From Eledone cirrhosa (taxonomy: Eukaryota): DNA of 64,000 bases. The translations under genes and the position numbers were made by a program. The stretch is taken from the NCBI GenBank assembly GCA_964016885.1, contig OZ024745.1:121148001-121212000 (forward strand), given 5' to 3'. Under the pieces are notes generated by a model. The model worked only from the letters and a program-made list of their open reading frames with translations. It did not search any database and had not been told where the DNA came from. Below are positions 1,389 to 19,680 of this stretch, in pieces. Each line of letters starts with the position of its first letter. The first letter of the stretch is position 1.

Positions 1389-1800
1389 AAAGGCAAACAG
1401 AAATAACAAAGCAAACGACACAGTACAATGAAGAAATATATTAATAGTTTTACGCTTCATATAGTAGGAAAGGGGTCTTAACGTTTCAGATGCTAGTTCT
1501 TCATCAAAAGATAGAATGAGAAATTAAAGAAGACATAGAAAGAGTGAGGAGACTGGCAGGGTGGAAATGGAAAACAATTTTTCAGAGAAAAATAACAGGT
1601 CCATTCATATTGCTATCTCTTAGAAAACTGTTGATGCTAGCGTTTTGTGTACTATATGCTTGATTGAAAAGGTGGTGATCGAGCGTGTGTATGTATATGT
1701 ATGTATGTATGTATGTGTGTGTATATATATATATATATATATTGAATAAAGCGATAGGAAGCCGGAAAGATGAAATTCCTTTAAAGATTTTATTCTGCAG

Positions 1801-1852
1801 GCATTATATATATTTCAATGACCAGTAAGATTCCAGTGACATCATCAGGTGC
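1801..1852 (-). ncRNA. Minimal type I hammerhead ribozyme motif
   Basis: GCAC CUGAUGA [stem II] GAAA U-AUAU-A UA AUGC; one stem I mismatch. Confidence 0.55.
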
Positions 1853-1983
1853 ATTGCATAACAGTTATAAAGGAAACAGTGAACACAGGTTGTGTACATG
1901 AAGACAAAAAAAAAAAGATTAAAATACTTGACTTGGGGGCAGCCTATGTCCAATCCGTTAGATTAACTGCCCCCATATATTTA

Positions 1984-2324
1984 TAATACAGTATATAGAG
2001 AAGAGGTTATGTTTTCATTTACAAGGGGTATAGAACCACTATAGTGAAGGATATAAGGTCTACGGAGAGTGGAGAAAATACATAATAATTAAGAGGTAAA
2101 ATTAAAATGTAAAACACCCACCTTTATAACTATACACACCTAGGGAATGTCCAGGTGTGTATAGTTATAAAGGTGGGTGTTTTACATTTTAATTTTACCT
2201 CTTAATTATTATGTATTTTCTCCACTCTTTGTAGACCTTATATCCTTCACTATAGTGGTTCTATACCCCTTGTAAATGAAAACATAACCCCTTTTTGTGT
2301 TATCTTCTCTATATACTGTATTAT
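1984..2324. repeat. Near-perfect palindrome, arms about 155 bp
   Basis: Arms meet at about 2141-2152; two substitutions and one small indel seen. Confidence 0.9.
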
Positions 2325-2566
2325 TGAGAGTCTGGTAATTTATTCCTTGAGCTCATAAAATTACAGGGGATTAACGCGAGTCTTTAACTCCATTTTTTTT
2401 CAATTTATATATCATCATCATCACCGTTTTACATATATCTTATAATCACCACTATAATGTTCCACATTTGTGTCATATTGTTGCTAGAATTTACCTTCAC
2501 TCAATCATAGCAACAAGTGTCTCCATTTTCACGAAAATATTATTACTTTTCCTTTTCCAGATTATT

Positions 2567-2629
2567 TCATTTACTATCTTTAATATCAAATTCTAGAACT
2601 TCTTCTAATTTCTGATATGTTTTCAGGCT
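2567..2629 (-). CDS. FBXO41: FBXO41-like terminal coding exon
   Basis: atcttttcag acceptor, phase 0; SLKTYQKLEEVLEFDIKDSK then TGA. The length matches the short FBXO41 C-terminal tail. Confidence 0.75.
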   Translation of the reverse strand, partial: SLKTYQKLEEVLEFDIKDSK

Positions 2630-3696
2630 CTGAAAAGATAACAGTAAAAATAAAAAAATATATATGATATTTGAATATATTGATTTCTAACTTTGGCAGA
2701 AAGACAAAATATTGTGGAGGAACTGTCCTCCTCATCATCATTGTTTAACATCTATCTTCCATGCTTGCATGGGTAGGATGGCCTGTCCCTTTGTGAGGGA
2801 TCAAGTTGGATTCTGGCTAGATTTCTACAGCTGGATGCCCTTCCGAACGCCAACCACATTTAGAGTGTACTGGGTGTTTTTTGTCGTGACACCTACACGA
2901 CCATTTTGCAGTGTGTGGTGGGTGTTTTTTGTTGTGACACCTACTTGACCACTTTACGGTGTGGAATGGATGCTCATTTTTGTCATGATACCTACATGAC
3001 CACTATAATGTGGGCTGGACTCTTTTGTCATGGCCCCAAGGGTGGGGGGGGGGGGGATCACTTATCTACTATATCTAGCAGATGTAATGACTATGAAGTT
3101 TAATCACTAAGCTATACACCTTCACTTAGGTATTATCTCTAGCAAATGTAATGACCATGAAGAGGCTCTGTTATTATCCCATGTAGTAACTGGTAAATAT
3201 GTCAGATGTTTACCATAAAATACATGCTCAAGACTCTATTCAGTGTACTCCACTTTTTTTCTATCTATTCAACTCCTACTATTAAATTTACTAATCACTT
3301 TAAATGCATTTTATATAAATAGTTAATTCTAAGATTATACATTTGTCTCTCTGTACATGACAATTAGACAAATGGCTGATAACAGATGTTTTATCAATGA
3401 CAGTCATATGTCTGGTTAGTCACTTGTCTTTCATAATACATTATACTTGTATTATACAGGGTGTCCCAAAAGTCACTAGACAATTTTATACAAATACTAA
3501 ACCAACCATGACCCGTTGGGTCATGTTCACTTCAAAATATTTTAAAATAATTTTTAAATAATTAAAATATACAGACATGTATATAATGTGAAATAAAACT
3601 GGAAGGCCCATATATATATATACTTGTGTGTTTGTATATATCTATATATATGTGTGGGTGTCTGATCTATATACACTGGTCATAGACACACATATA

Positions 3697-3734
<38 letters not shown>

Positions 3735-3739
3735 CATGG

Positions 3740-3903
3740 AGACATGGCTTAGTGGTTAGAGCATTGGCCTTGCAATTGAAAGGTTGTGAGTTCAATTCTC
3801 AGATCGGGCGATGTGTTGTTTCCTTGAGCAAGACACTTTATTTCACATTGCTCCAGTTTACTCAGCTGTAGAAATGAGTTGATAGGGACTGGGGTCCCTA
3901 TCA
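3740..3903 (+). mobile_element. tRNA-derived SINE (CORE-like); second copy 62845-63010, minus copy about 35700-35935
   Basis: A box tggcttagtggt, B box gttcaattc, then ccttgagcaagacactttatttcac. Confidence 0.8.
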
Positions 3904-4423
3904 TTCCACTGCAAAGTGGTCGTGGAGGTGCCACAGCAGAAAAGCACCCAGCACTCACTGTAAATGAGGTTGGTGTTAGGAAGGGCATCCAGCTGTAGAA
4001 ATCAAGCCAGAATCAGTTCCTGTCCCACCCTTGCAAGCAGGGAAAAGTGGACGTAAAATGAAATGATGATGAATGTTGATATATATATACACAACAACAC
4101 CACCAGCTCTCTTCCATTCTCCTACTCTGTCTCCTCTCCCTATCTCTATGTCTCTCTTTCAATCTACTCTGTCACAACCACTATCTCTTTCTCTCTATCC
4201 TTCTCTCTTTCTCTCTCTGTTTATGAAGGTACCCGGAAAAACCCTGTATCTCGGGAACCCGTGCTCTGATTTACGCGAAACTTGTTTTATTCCATTTGTA
4301 TTCCCATTTCAGAGACAACTTCCTTTCCAAGTATTTTCCCATTATGCGCCCTTTTGGCTGTATTACATTACAGACAAGCAAGCACAGACTATTATATAGA
4401 TATATATAATAGTATTATATAGA

Positions 4424-4906
4424 CTAGCAGAAAAACGACTCTTCGGGTGGTTTTCTGCTAGCATGTGTAGTGTGTATATTGATATTATACGCAAGTATAT
4501 ATACATGTAGATATGGTACATCAAATAAAATCGTAATTGACAATATACACAGAAATTGAACGAAGACTGCGTTACACTGTTTTATGTAATCAGTAATGTA
4601 ATCCATGATACATTAAAAAAAGACGATATTATATATAAACTGCATTAGGAGAAAATTAGTGACGGAAATATATCAATGTTTATTTAATCGATCGCTAACT
4701 GGAAGTGTTGACATTTGAAAATTTTAAAGAATTGAATCTTTAAATAATTAATAACATATATTTAATGAACAGCCACGAAATTTAGTAGATAAATTATGTA
4801 ATATTCATTCATTATTTATTCAAAGTAATCCAACTTATTTTACTAAGAGGATAAAAAATTATAAACCGTACGCAGTCCCGCGCTTCTTACTTTATTATAG
4901 TTTAGA
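4424..4906 (-). mobile_element. Non-autonomous Helitron-like element; second copy about 51790-52243
   Basis: On minus: 5' TC after A, 3' hairpin ctagcagaaaa...ttttctgCTAG before T. The copy near 52 kb is highly similar. Confidence 0.7.
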
Positions 4907-5727
4907 TATATATAAAATTGTCTAGTGACTTTGTGGACATCCTATACTTTTATTTATTTGGTTTTTCTTATTTTCCTCTTTTTTTTTAATAGTGGATTTA
5001 GTTTTCATCTGTTTCATTAACTAGAGCAAGATTTAATTTTTTGTCCACTTTCAGTGAAGTAGTTTATTTTAATCTGAAAAAATAGACTGGACAGTAGCCA
5101 AAGGAGAGAGTGTTGGCTGTTGACTGTTGGGATCAATTCACATTTCCTAGAAGGAAAAGGAGAGGGACATGAGACAGTAAATATAATAGTTGGGATTCTT
5201 CTTCTTATCGTATGACATATGCACAATGGTTAGAGAGACAGGTCGAGATTGGTGAGCCTGACTAAGGCATCATTTGTAGTATTAAGGATTGCCTCCTAGC
5301 CACTGGGAAAACGTCTGAGGGGTTAATCCTAAACAACATGCAGCATTATCTGGTCAGGCTCCCCACAGTCACTTGCTGGGCTGTCTTTCATTTTACATCG
5401 ATGGAGATGTCTTTCATTTTACATCTTGATATGTGTTGTGCAGATCCAATCAAGGAACACTCATAGTTGGGATTATTTATTGAGATCTACTAAAGATAGC
5501 TGAATGGCTCACTTCTCAATTATTGGGTCCTGTGTTAAATCCCACCATATGTCATCTTGGGCAAGTGTCATTTACCATAACCTCAGAGCAACATAGATGA
5601 GTTACCTCCCTTTGCGTGACGTAACAAAATCACAAGAGCATTATATATTAGTAGATGATATTACCAATTTCTTTCCATATTTGCTCTTCTTTTCACTGAC
5701 ATAAGAAAGAAATACTTATTAACTTAC

Positions 5728-14310: not shown

Positions 14311-15075
14311 ATGCGTACATACATCTATCCATACATAAACATACAATAGACATATGCATACACACATTTACAGATAAACATATATTTATACCTGTAGGTA
14401 TATATATATTTACATCCACACATACATGTAATACATGTAGATTATCATCCATAAATATATACATACACCTCCATCCGAATATACATATAAACACACATGC
14501 ATATATACATATGCATGTACCCATATATAAATGTATATACATACACACACACTTATACTCATATGCATACACATATGTACACAATACACATATACATCTA
14601 TATAATCACATATGTATCTATATACATATATACACGATAGCTGCAAATTCTGCTAAGAATATTGCAATCACTTATCAGATTATTGAGTTTGGTGCACTTT
14701 TAGGCTACGGCCAGCCACACGAACCTGTAACAGATCCTGCACAAGCGACACCTGTGCTTTGAATGTTTTTTAAGTGGGGAAAGGCCTTGCACTCGACTAA
14801 TCCCACTCTCTGAGCATCGAAGACACTACCCACAAAGAAGAACTGGTCTACATCATTGGATGCTTTTGAAGCTGCAGGTTTTTCTTTCAGAGTTTCCCTC
14901 TCATAGAAAGGTGTTGTGACAACTGGGGACCTTTCACTTCCAGATGAAAAAAAAAAAAAGTACTATTTGGATGGACATTGACTCTGCTAGGTCCTCCACC
15001 CTTTGCTGGGTCCAAATATCACCCTCCTCACCAGTAGCACTCGAGAGTGACCTGACATACGTACATACATACATG

Positions 15076-16074
15076 CATAATATGTATGAGTAATATAGAT
15101 AAGGAAAGTATTCTATCTTGGACCAACAACCGCTATATTGGCTCCCACTTTGAAGGATATGCTTTTGCAATCCAAGAACAGGAGATTAACACGAAATACC
15201 TGATTCACAAAAGAGATAGGGATGCAGGCAAAACACCTAGATGTGATAACAAGTGCAGACTCAGCAGAAATAACATCGAGGATATCACCCATGTCATCAG
15301 CAGCTGTCCAAAGATGTCATCGCAGTACTATCTACCTTTGAGGCATGATGTAGTGGCCAAAACACTGTACAATGCAGTTCATAAAAAAGATAGCCCCGAT
15401 AGTAAACACATTAAAAGCTACAGCAATGTGGAAGACATCCATGTACATAATATGAAAGAGTACTGGTGGAATGTTCCAGTAAAAACCCCAATAAAATGCA
15501 GGCATAACAGACCAGATATTATGATATGGGACAGGGAAAAGAAGGCATGCACAGTAGTGGAAATTAGCTGCCCAGCAGATGCCAATATAATATCAAAGAT
15601 TAGTGAAAAGGAGAATATTTATGCAGAACTGATGAGAAATCTGCAGATACTCCACCCTGATTACACCTTCAGATTTATACCTGTGATTATTAGGGCACTG
15701 GGGTATGTTCGTAACTGCCTCAATACAAATCTTGAGAAGCTGGGCTTCACAGGAACAGAAAGAACACAACTAGTTAGGAAATTACAAGTACAATCCATTA
15801 ATGGAACAGTAAAAATATGTAAAACATTCCAGAAATTTTGCATCTAATAACTGCATATACACATGTACAGATACAAAGCATATGCACATGCACACATATA
15901 ACTCAAAACATAAACATCCACACATACAATAACATCCATATCTACACATGCATACATACATATCTACCTAGTTGATGTTGTGTAAGTTCCAATGAGAGAG
16001 TCTTGTGTCTATGTTAGAAACCGACTATCTCTCTATTGGTAAAACTTTGTGAAATTATAAAACCAGAAGAACAT
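15076..16074 (+). mobile_element. 5'-truncated R4/Dong-type non-LTR retrotransposon (restriction-like endonuclease C-terminus plus 3' UTR)
   Basis: ORF 15086-15847: AIQEQEI, CRL(S)..E...H..S.C zinc knuckle, RHD, RPDI, EISCP..K..EK..Y RLE motifs. Flanked by (CATA)n. Confidence 0.88.
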
Positions 16075-16167
16075 GATGGCTGCCCCCTCGTTATCGAGTA
16101 TGGCCATTGCACAATAAAAAAAAAAAATAAAATAAAATAAAACAAAACAAAACAAAAAAAAAAAAAA

Positions 16168-16228
<61 letters not shown>

Positions 16229-16307
16229 GCAATAATAATAATAACGACAACAACAATAATAATATACATATTCATATATATATACACACACACGCACGCA
16301 CATAAGC

Positions 16308-16345
<38 letters not shown>

Positions 16346-16353
16346 GATAGCAA

Positions 16354-16875
16354 CTAACAGTGCTGCGATCGAATGTGGCTTTTTAGCCCAGCCAATGATC
16401 CAAAATGTCTTGCACAGAGTCGGCAACCAAAACATTTACTGGGAATAGTCGGCTGTGGTTGGAGTTCGTGTACTTTTGCATGTCGCTTGAGTCCTCCTGC
16501 TGATTTACATTCTCTACCACATGTTTGGCAAGCATGATGAGTAGCATCTCCAACAGCAGCCTGGTAGTCAACCACTGGTCTTACTTTATGACTGCGAAGA
16601 TGACTTTCGAGTCCAGCTTTGCTTAGGCAGAGTCTCGCACAGACGCTGCATGTCAGAAACATAGGAGGACCCTCGCCGTCTGGAAGTGCAACAGCAATAC
16701 CCTTCCTCACGTCCCGCTTTACTTTCTCGTGTGCGATTCGAGATGCCTCAAAGGCAACTTTTCCCTCATATACAGTCTTTCTCCATTTATTACGATCAGC
16801 AGCAATATTTTCCCATGTATCAGCAGAGATGTTAGCGTCTTTCAGAGAGGCCTTCAAGGAATCCTTATACCTCTT
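16354..16875 (-). CDS. RTE LINE ORF2 C-terminus with three C2H2 zinc fingers
   Basis: KRYKDSLKASLK...WENIAADRNKWR (RTE C-terminal motif), then CSVC-x12-HLRSH, CQTC-x12-HAKVH, CRLC-x12-HIRSQH, then TAG. Confidence 0.9.
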   Translation of the reverse strand, partial: KRYKDSLKASLKDANISADTWENIAADRNKWRKTVYEGKVAFEASRIAHEKVKRDVRKGIAVALPDGEGPPMFLTCSVCARLCLSKAGLESHLRSHKVRPVVDYQAAVGDATHHACQTCGRECKSAGGLKRHAKVHELQPQPTIPSKCFGCRLCARHFGSLAGLKSHIRSQHC

Positions 16876-16929
16876 TTTTTTTTTTTTTTTTTTTTCTCCC
16901 TTTTTTTTTTTTTTTTTTTTTCCAATTCA

Positions 16930-19570
16930 ATGATGTTCCAGAACAATGTAAACGAGATAATTGCCAATTTGGGTTCTGGAACAAAAAAGATCATTGGCAA
17001 TAAGGGCAGGGGCCCCAAGTTATCACAACCTGGGCCCGCCCGTCATCGTGCCATTGTAATAGAGCCAAACAGGGCATTTAGTCTTGGCTGCTGGAACGTA
17101 CGGACGCTGCTTGACAGGGATTCTTTGGAGCGTCCTGAACGAAGGACCGCTCTTGTTGCGAAGGAGCTTCGACGTTACGATCTTGACATCGTGGCTTTGT
17201 CTGAGACGAGGTTAGCTGGAGATGGTCATCTTACGGAATTTTGTGGAGGGTATACATTCTTCTGGAAAGGAAGAGATGAAGGAACCAGAAGAGAGGCTGG
17301 GGTAGGATTTGCTGTTAAGACTGTACTGGTGAATAAATTGGAAGAATTCCCAGTGGGGATTAGTGAGCGTCTTATGTCCATGCGAGTTCCGCTGGACAAG
17401 GGAAGATATGCTACCCTGGTGAGTGTGTATGCTCCAACTATGAATTCTGTCGATGAAGAAAAACTGTCCTTTTACCATGCCTTGAAAGGTGTTTTAAGAA
17501 ATATCCCTCAGGCAGACAAGGTCATCGTGCTTGGTGACTTTAATGCTAGAGTGGGTAGGGATTTTAACACATGGAATGTAATCGGAAGGCATGGGGTGGG
17601 AAAGTGTAACAGCAATGGTATGCTCTTGCTGCAGATGTGTGAGGAGCTGGATCTGTGTGTTACCAGCACCATGTTCCAACAAAAGAACAAATTCAAGACC
17701 ACATGGATGCATCCTGCATCTAAGGAATGGCATCTTTTGGACTACGTCCTAGTCAGGATGCGTGACAGACAGGATGTGCGGTGTGTTCGTGTTCTTCGTG
17801 GAGCTGAGTGCTGGACGGACCACCGCCTGGTACGCGCAAAAGTGAATCTAATCACCAAACGTAAAATCCGGGCTCCTGGTGTTACCCTGCCCAAAAGATT
17901 GAATGCTGCTCGTCTTAAGGATAAAGATGTGAAGAGGACATTGGAAGAAGAGATGCAGGCTGCAGATCTTGGTGAGGATTGGCCGACCCTTAAAAAGTCG
18001 GTTTATGATGTAGGCAGACGTGTTCTGGAATTGGTGCAGAGAAAACATCAGGACTGGTTTAATGAGAAAGATGTGCATATAGATGACTTGTTGGCTGATA
18101 AGAGGCGCGCTCTGTCACGCTACTTGACGGCAAGACCACAGGAGAGGAATACGTTGCATGAGGAGCTCAGGGATGTAAAATCACGTGTTAGGCGGAGTCT
18201 TTCTCAGATGAAGGATCAGTGGTGGAGTGAGAAGGCTGGTGAGATACAAACTGCGTCTGATTGCAATAACACAAAGCTGTTGTACAGTCTCTTGCGTGAG
18301 GTTTATGGACCGTCTTCTTCTCTGGTGACACCGATTCGCAGCAAGGATGGCAAAGAACTTCTTCGTGACTCACAGGGAATTCTACGAAGGTGGCGGGAGC
18401 ACTTTGATGATCTTTTGAATCAGCCGTCTGTCGTCAGTGAAGATTTCCTCAATCTCATTCCGGAAAGTCCTGTGAAAGTAGCTCTCGCAGAGCCTCCGAC
18501 ACTTGTGGAGGTTGCAGTGGCTATTTCGAAGCTGAACAGTGGAAGATCTCCAGGTATGGATGGCATACATGCTGAGCTCCTACAATATGGTGGTGAGAGA
18601 CTCCTGCAACATCTTCACTCTCTGTTTGGAGGGATATGGGCTAATGAATCCGTGCCTGAGGACTGGAGAGATGCAGTAATGGTGGTCTTGTACAAGGGAA
18701 AGGGTAACAGGAATGATTGTGGGAACTACAGAGGTATATCATTGCTTTCTGTCGTGGGGAAAGTTTTATGTAGGGTGCTTCTGGACCGTCTGCTGACACA
18801 CATTGCAGATTGTGTCCTTCCTGAAAGTCAATCTGGTTTTCGTGTTGGACGCGGCACTACTGATATGATCTTCTCAGCTAGACAGCTCCAGGAGAAGTGC
18901 ATTGAACAGGGCTTGGATCTGTATCAGGTTTTTGTCGATCTGACAAAGGCTTTCGATACTGTCAACAGAGATGCATTATGGAAGGTTCTCCAGAAACTTG
19001 GTTGCCCTGATAAGTTCCTTGCTTTAGTTAGGTCTTTCCATGACGACATGAAGGCTTGGGTTAATGTCGGAGGTAACATGTCGGAGCCTATCTCAGTAAA
19101 AAATGGAGTGAAACAGGGGGATATTCCAGCACCGACCCTGTTTGCCATATACTTTGCAATGGTTTTCTGTGTTGCATTCAGGAATTGCGAGCATGGTGTT
19201 TACATCCGATATCGAACCTCAGGCAGCATATTTAACATCAGGCGCTTTGCTGCGAAGACAAAAGTATTTACATCAGTCATAAGAGACCTCTTGTATGCAG
19301 ATGATTGCGATCTTGTAGCGCACACAGAGAGTGATATGCAGCACATTTTGAATGTATTTTCTGACGCTTGCACTGCCCTGGGTTTGACTGTCAGTCTCAA
19401 GAAAACCGTCGTCATGTACCAACCTGCACCTGGTAGGCAGTACACTGAACCAAACATCTATGTGTATGGCAAACGACTTGGAGTGGTTGATCAGTTTGTC
19501 TACCTGGGAAGCACTGTCAATCGATACGGCAACCTTGACAGTGAAATCTCACTTAGGATTAGGAAAGCAG
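16930..19570 (+). CDS. RTE LINE ORF2 5' portion: APE endonuclease plus reverse transcriptase, stop-free, truncated after RIRKA
   Basis: Motifs GCWNVRTL, LSETR, VYAPT, LGDFNARVG, LDYVLV, TDHRLV, NYRGISLLS, QSGFR, FVDLTKAFDTV, GVKQGD, LLYADD, FVYLGS. Confidence 0.95.
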
Positions 19571-19581
19571 AAGAACATACA

Positions 19582-19613
<32 letters not shown>

Positions 19614-19647
19614 CATACATAGATACATGCATACATACATACATACA

Positions 19648-19680
<33 letters not shown>

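Follow-up and report, generated by a model that had tools for sequence, protein, structure and literature searches.

Structure of an inverted LINE copy

The stretch analysed here, referred to as the window, comprises 64,000 nucleotides (nt) of the Eledone cirrhosa genome (assembly GCA_964016885.1, contig OZ024745.1, positions 121,148,001 to 121,212,000), and coordinates below count from its first letter. It harbors a 3.5-kb copy of an RTE-type long interspersed nuclear element (LINE), the front of which lies in inverted orientation between two copies of an 11-mer, CAGAAGAACAT. This 11-mer matches the window only at 16064-16074 and 19568-19578 (0.03 matches expected; none of 100 shuffled sequences contained two). 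Between the two copies lie the 3' untranslated region (UTR) and the C-terminal part of an open reading frame (ORF) on the minus strand, a 48-nt T-rich tract, and a plus-strand frame encoding an APE endonuclease and a reverse transcriptase (RT). The plus-strand ORF extends from an ATG at 16930 to the motif RIRKA at 19569, with 880 stop-free codons and Pfam matches to Exo_endo_phos and RVT_1. The minus-strand coding piece (16879-16354) runs from KKRYKD to QHC and a stop codon, contains C2H2 fingers and passes into the 3' UTR, which continues to 16075. The initial annotation, made from the letters alone, had recognized this arrangement, and the frames and Pfam domains confirm it.

Alignment with intact copies of the family, which had been proposed as a check, placed the breakpoints at element nt 4223, ~1524 and 4604: the segment from nt 4223 to ~1524 is inverted and is followed by nt 4604-5383 in forward orientation. 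The internal end of the ~2.7-kb inverted piece (nt 4223) abuts the 5' target site duplication (TSD), and its upstream end (~1524) is fused to the forward piece at nt 4604. Two parts of the element are absent, namely a 380-nt segment that separates the two pieces in intact copies and ~1.5 kb at the very start (~1,520 nt of the 5' UTR). In intact copies the missing 380 nt encode LLYACETW and RWSGHLARM, in agreement with the predicted loss of a segment between RIRKA and KRYKD. With ~1,520 nt of upstream 5' UTR missing, it is not the 5'-most sequence of the element that was fused to the 3' piece, as had been supposed.

Within the forward piece, the 3' UTR (16075-16353, minus strand) contains (GT)n, (TTA)n and T tracts and closes with a CATCAT tail, the same end being found in 38 matches among the 40 copies listed; the coding piece (16354-16879, minus strand), which begins at element nt 4604, specifies the C-terminus with three C2H2 zinc fingers. 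The inverted piece (16922-19569, plus strand; element nt ~1576-4223) covers the ORF from its start to RIRKA, including the APE endonuclease and the RT, and ends in the T-rich stretch (16874-16921, plus strand) that had been noted earlier as a junction. This stretch is indeed present; it proved, however, to be a native 5' UTR tract of the family, joined to the forward piece over six A/T bases, and CTCCC or a close variant occurs in 5 of the 22 copies showing the ORF start. An origin of the T-run as an inverted poly(A) tail, as in PMC2837659, was ruled out on this ground. Bases are shared at three points: CA (2 nt, 19568-19569) at the internal end, AT (2 nt, 16073-16074) at the tail, and the six A/T bases (16874-16879) at the inversion junction. 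Microhomology had been anticipated at the first two of these, although with one base too many in each case (CAG and CAT).

Target site and host repeat

The RTE copy is preceded by the 3' end of an older LINE (15056-16074, plus strand), here called the host repeat, with a 263-codon frame belonging to a C-terminal restriction-like endonuclease region (CCHC, RHD, RPD..E..K). The host repeat gave no Pfam or PDB match, and we take it to be R2/R4-Dong-like. The segment is 88-96% identical to all 12 fetched host copies, every one of which contains the 11-mer once, followed by ACAT repeats. Across the genome, the host-repeat end motif with a single 11-mer and then ACAT or ATAT was found at 4,828 places (control, 0). 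In the window, one 11-mer stands at the element's 3' end (16064-16074; the last two bases are common with the CAT tail, and this is the putative first-strand priming site). The other stands at the internal breakpoint (19568-19578; the first two bases are common with the element, and this is the putative second priming site). An (ACAT)n microsatellite (19579-19680, plus strand) follows, of the kind that trails the host repeat end in uninterrupted copies, and the RTE element was inserted at its edge.

Removal of the RTE element together with one 11-mer restores the normal end of the host repeat. Since host ends carry a single 11-mer before ACAT, the duplication is real, and the microsatellite is older than the insertion; the bracketing 11-mer is thus a true TSD, as originally proposed. 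TSDs in unique sequence measured 11 nt in the window and 13 and 15 nt in two other copies (L070 and L258, respectively), each enclosing the whole unit. Four of 40 other young RTE copies (L032, L059, L060 and L061) also adjoin the host LINE, and the two families therefore share targets.

The RTE-type family

The intact element is ~5,383 nt long and consists of a 1,583-nt 5' UTR, a single ORF starting at nt 1584 that encodes an APE-RT-C2H2 protein of 1,181 aa, and a 3' UTR of ~280 nt with a (CAT)2-3 tail. The longest ATG-started sense frame of the 5' UTR is 69 aa; the element has one ORF with APE and RT, and no ORF1. The L1-clade hallmarks, a pair of ORFs (ORF1 and ORF2) with a poly(A) tail, are absent, and L1 ORF2p is only distantly similar (77 bits). 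Protein homologs are 48-65% identical and carry no element names. The architecture fits the RTE clade, as do the short 3' UTR closing with a tandem repeat and the TSD lengths of 11, 13 and 15 nt, and the RTE label is used here in this architectural sense, not on the basis of a tree. The C-terminal motifs are presumably RTE-like as well.

A search of the 3.0-Gb genome returned 1,461 candidates for the 3' piece and 1,406 for the 5' piece. The 40 hits scored for each were 100% identical for the 3' piece, with 16340-16875 matching fully in 40 of 40 copies, and 99-100% identical for the 5' piece. The 5' piece differs from 25 young copies by 8-21 mismatches in 2,645 nt, from their majority by 10 and from the nearest copies by 8. 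Given these distances and the identity of the 3' piece in 40 copies, both halves, at 99.4-100% identity, belong to one young family; this defeats the possibility, raised at the outset, of two subfamilies that each have a TSD. Of the 22 copies showing the ORF start, 20 have retained an open frame of 1,181-1,182 aa. The earlier suggestion of a recent insertion from an active family is upheld. AT or ATGT repeats come after the CATCAT tail in the copies listed, and (AT)n/(ATGT)n microsatellites are the insertion target of the family.

The exact 3' end is present 5,603 times in the genome, and the 5' UTR marker 510 times. Among 95 fetched 3'-end stretches, 52 contained a short derivative and 31 a LINE body. 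The derivative is ~350 nt long, non-autonomous and similar to a short interspersed nuclear element; it combines element nt ~1195-1497 with the last ~45 nt and also lies in microsatellites (e.g., L115, L129 and L165). Element nt 1-1190, upstream of the part found in the derivative, consist of microsatellites and A/T tracts (L220 and L058) and are perhaps an acquired 5' extension. In L039, L046, L066, L067 and L056, the last 170-250 nt of the 3' UTR are tandemly duplicated, perhaps through re-priming at the tail.

Recurrence of inverted copies

An important question is whether the inverted structure recurs within the family. Inverted copies were counted in several samples, and the rates given below are sample-based rather than genome-wide. 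The long-copy sample comprised 93 of the first 100 of the 510 5' UTR marker places, all on contig C1, and favors long copies. Two samples were chosen by the 3' end (the 40 best young hits, and 95 stretches that contain 97 of the initial 100 among the 5,603 3' ends), and two by markers around the ORF start and the RT region (29 loci each). Opposite-strand hits far from a junction (L139, L151, L159, L177 and L292) were excluded as separate insertions, and L055 and L153 were counted apart.

An inverted piece abutting a forward piece was found in 14 of the 93 long copies (~15%, about one in seven), 13 of them detected by script and one (L287) by eye. Among the 3'-chosen copies, inversions were present in 3 of the 40 young hits and in none of the 31 unselected LINE bodies, i.e., in 3 of 71 (~4%) together. 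The marker samples yielded one inversion at 29 other RT-marker loci and two at 29 ORF-start loci, all three already in the set. There are thus 16 distinct inverted copies including that in the window, and the other 15 have different breakpoints and the same build. The pieces are separated by -10 to +7 nt in nine copies (negative values denote overlap), by +39 nt in one, by +380 to +2,570 nt in five and by -636 nt in one, and in three copies (L245, L258 and L300) the inverted piece reaches element nt 1. The near-zero gaps in 9 of 16 copies and the three pieces reaching nt 1 are as twin priming predicts.

The junctions were also inspected by eye. All 14 outer junctions inspected share 1-5 nt with the target, an uncorrected count that microsatellite targets inflate. 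Nine of 15 inversion junctions, likewise uncorrected for chance, share 1-6 nt, two are blunt and four contain extra bases. The extra bases in L245, L258 and L300 number 2-5 and may record the true 5' end of the RNA or its cap. The TSDs of the other inverted copies are embedded in microsatellites, or the 3' flank is absent from the fetched stretch (six copies).

Three loci deserve separate description. L055 (2440-5258) combines an inverted 3' end with a forward 5'-truncated copy, has a tail on both sides and no clear TSD, and is a candidate for priming on two RNAs. L053 (453-5272) and L153 (4623-5034) are inverted duplications fitting cDNA fold-back, with pairing of A/T runs and a palindromic apex, respectively.

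Origin of the inversion

We consider it very probable that the 3.5-kb copy in the window is dead, belongs to a very young RTE-type LINE that targets microsatellites and had its front inverted within one 11-bp TSD, likely via twin priming. For L1, the twin-priming model reportedly goes back to Ostertag and Kazazian in 2001. Direct observation supplies the geometry, the TSD, the three microhomologies, the derivation of both halves from one family and the recurrence in 15 other copies. The suggestion of the initial annotation that an RTE element (in the architectural sense) uses twin priming is thus supported, and the 15 other copies strengthen it.

Under twin priming, the APE endonuclease would have nicked the (ACAT)n run behind the older LINE at its edge. 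The nicked end, terminating in AT, would have paired with the CAUCAU tail of the RNA and primed a first cDNA as far as nt 4604. The other strand would have been cut 11 nt away, and its end, annealed to nt 4223 of the RNA through 2 nt, would have primed a second cDNA, 2.7 kb long, that reached the U-tract in the 5' UTR, hence its terminal A's. The six terminal T's of the first cDNA could then have paired with the end of the second, and repair would have sealed the joint with the loss of 380 nt and 1.5 kb of 5' UTR. The gap sizes suggest that both cDNAs were made from one RNA during insertion. Internal priming sites in the family lie mostly in the repeat-rich 5' UTR, and second priming there may reflect pairing with AT/ATGT target ends.

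Could the same structure have arisen in another way? A 5'-truncated copy might have been inserted normally, with a later DNA break whose repair inverted the front and deleted 380 nt. Microhomology and deletion are also typical of end-joining repair, and no empty or intermediate allele was seen; yet the breakpoint would have to hit the TSD edge exactly and leave the TSD perfect, both in the window and in 15 other copies. In addition, three inversions stop at nt 1, gaps are near zero in 9 of 16 copies, and there was little time for such an event in a copy <0.5% from its relatives, so that we regard this course as very improbable. Just as improbable is an origin from two RNAs, or from two separate insertions, that came together in opposite orientation at a single site, by dual priming or nesting. 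The family does cluster in microsatellites, L055 bears a 3' end on both sides, RNAs of a near-clonal family are indistinguishable by sequence, and the window copy taken alone, with its 380-nt gap, would be compatible with this origin. However, its inverted piece has no 3' tail or TSD of its own, and pieces that meet within 10 nt, as in 9 of 16 copies, need one template.

Fold-back or template switching of a single cDNA, without second priming from the target DNA, is less probable still in our estimation. The family is capable of it, since L053, with its 636-nt overlap via A/T runs, and the short derivative L153, a hairpin with a palindromic apex, look like its products. Fold-back would, however, give an inverted duplication, whereas the inverted piece of the window lies wholly upstream of the forward piece, with 380 nt absent, and overlap is limited to <=10 nt in 15 of 16 copies. 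Least credible of all is an assembly error in the T-tract, which belongs to a high-copy repeat. The pieces do meet in 48 nt of low complexity, for which read evidence was uninformative; the second junction, however, falls in unique ORF sequence and stops at a perfect TSD, by which the normal host end is restored, and most other inverted copies join in non-homopolymer sequence.

Several observations nevertheless weigh against the twin-priming interpretation. No read or contig was shown to span the junctions, as Logan contigs and restriction site-associated DNA reads over 15600-17300 left gaps at two repeats (16108-16350 and 16864-16932) and were overwhelmed by paralogous sequence. The microhomologies are short, inflated by microsatellite targets and uncorrected for chance, most other inverted copies have ambiguous microsatellite TSDs, and in six the fetched stretch has no 3' flank. 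Inversion was absent from the unselected 3'-end LINE bodies (0/31), and the all-copy rate is only ~4% (3/71). A large ORF-internal inversion such as that in the window is atypical (1/29 other RT-region loci inverted), the 636-nt overlap of L053 fits fold-back better, and no intermediate was observed.

A-to-G bias among the copies

Seven of the ten differences between the inverted piece of the window and the young majority are sense-strand A>G changes (17249, 17250, 17520, 17666, 17926, 18631 and 19171). The same bias was found in the ORF of 83 young copies, many of which were picked for likeness to the window, with variation consequently lowered in the query segments: A>G sites numbered 78 against 12 T>C sites (p 1.4e-12), A>G events 216 against 13, and singletons 42 against 11. 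Of the 78 A>G sites, 53 change the protein; ORF nt 411, 1415, 1702, 2242 and 2711 are recurrent A>G sites. Ten apparent G>A sites carry A in older copies, and the 56 differences between the older and young majorities include 23 A>G and 8 T>C, a pattern for which an editing ratchet is a likely reading. A 5' G is depleted at A>G sites (odds ratio 0.37, p 0.0013), and a 3' G is enriched (2.3, p 0.0005). In sites edited by ADAR, G is rare on the 5' side and common on the 3' side.

All four haplotypes occurred in 93 of 171 pairs of common sites, and linkage was detected in 20 of 595 pairs. An origin of all A>G sites as independent per-molecule edits was rejected on account of these linked pairs and of haplotypes shared by some copies; inheritance from several source copies therefore contributes, and recurrent change plus inheritance underlies the A>G sites. 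Judging from the strand bias and site context, the A>G excess is likely due to editing of the RNA by ADAR ahead of reverse transcription, with biased RT error as the rival source.

Comparison with known systems and significance

In L1 twin priming, one DNA end primes at the RNA 3' end and the other internally, and the cDNAs join via short complementarity (PMC2912911); among human L1 insertions, inversion affects 18-22%, and the pieces lie no more than 20 bp apart in 46% (PMC12016303). The Eledone family resembles mammalian L1 in its inverted internal piece at the 5' TSD, forward 3' piece with a tail, apparent microhomology both at the outer ends and where the pieces join, small overlaps or gaps (within 10 nt in 9/16 copies, against the above 46% within 20 bp in L1), TSDs of 11-15 nt and a long-copy rate of the same order (15% vs 18-31%; PMC2912911, PMC12016303). 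It differs in having a single ORF without ORF1, a tail of CAT units where L1 has poly(A), insertion into microsatellites rather than at TTTT/A, inversions located mostly in the 1.6-kb 5' UTR and a lower overall rate (~4%).

In cell assays of non-L1 LINEs, inversions were nearly confined to L1 in human cells, with one inverted Nimb-2 insert (PMC4245944). The same paper linked twin priming with 3' overhangs measuring 10-20 nt and quoted an RTE TSD peak of 10-12 bp; the 11-15 nt cut of the present family lies in this overhang range. No RTE was among the elements assayed there, whereas here a natural RTE-type family inverts repeatedly.

RTE-2_OV of Octopus vulgaris (PMC9115989) is likewise an RTE-clade LINE with one ORF containing endonuclease, RT and a C2H2 finger (called rare in RTE in that paper), a microsatellite-rich 3' UTR and signs of activity. 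Compared by description rather than by sequence, it has 1,109 aa and UTRs of ~600 nt, unlike the 1,181 aa and 1,583-nt 5' UTR found here. A short-repeat 3' tail, an A as the first TSD base, microhomology of 1-2 nt on the 3' side and a link to microsatellites are shared with RTE/Bov-B elements (PMC6007223, PMC13295347, PMC2887409), for which a T-stretch signature or the making of microsatellites is reported, whereas here, in the window at least, the microsatellite is older than the insertion. The word "inversion" is absent from the main text of PMC9115989 and from PMC13295347 and occurs in PMC6007223 only within a reference title, and PMC4476161 and PMC13174262 treat twin priming for L1 only. 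A literature search whose coverage excluded a vertebrate LINE-clade survey, most subscription journals and supplements returned no family-level report of RTE twin priming and no RTE editing ratchet.

The finding is a known mechanism in a different kind of element, now with family-level numbers. On balance, and with considerable reserve, we incline to a joint proposal with two parts. An RTE that has no ORF1 and makes a staggered cut of 11-15 nt would twin-prime ~15% of its long insertions, steered by pairing between microsatellite ends and the 5' UTR and needing neither ORF1p nor a mammalian cell. At the same time, an ADAR-driven A-to-G ratchet would carry RNA edits, a large share of them recoding, into every new copy made in the germline, and the active lineage would accumulate them.

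The 5' inversion is usually attributed to mammalian L1 itself or to the cells hosting it. A young family outside L1 that counts its long copies in the hundreds, has mostly intact ORFs and shows 15% inversion among those long copies separates the roles of overhang length, ORF1p and host repair and makes them testable. For repeat annotation, inverted copies of this kind are split into false pairs. If the A>G bias does reflect ADAR editing, the copies of this family would preserve in DNA the RNA editing of the germline and offer a path from editing to inherited change.

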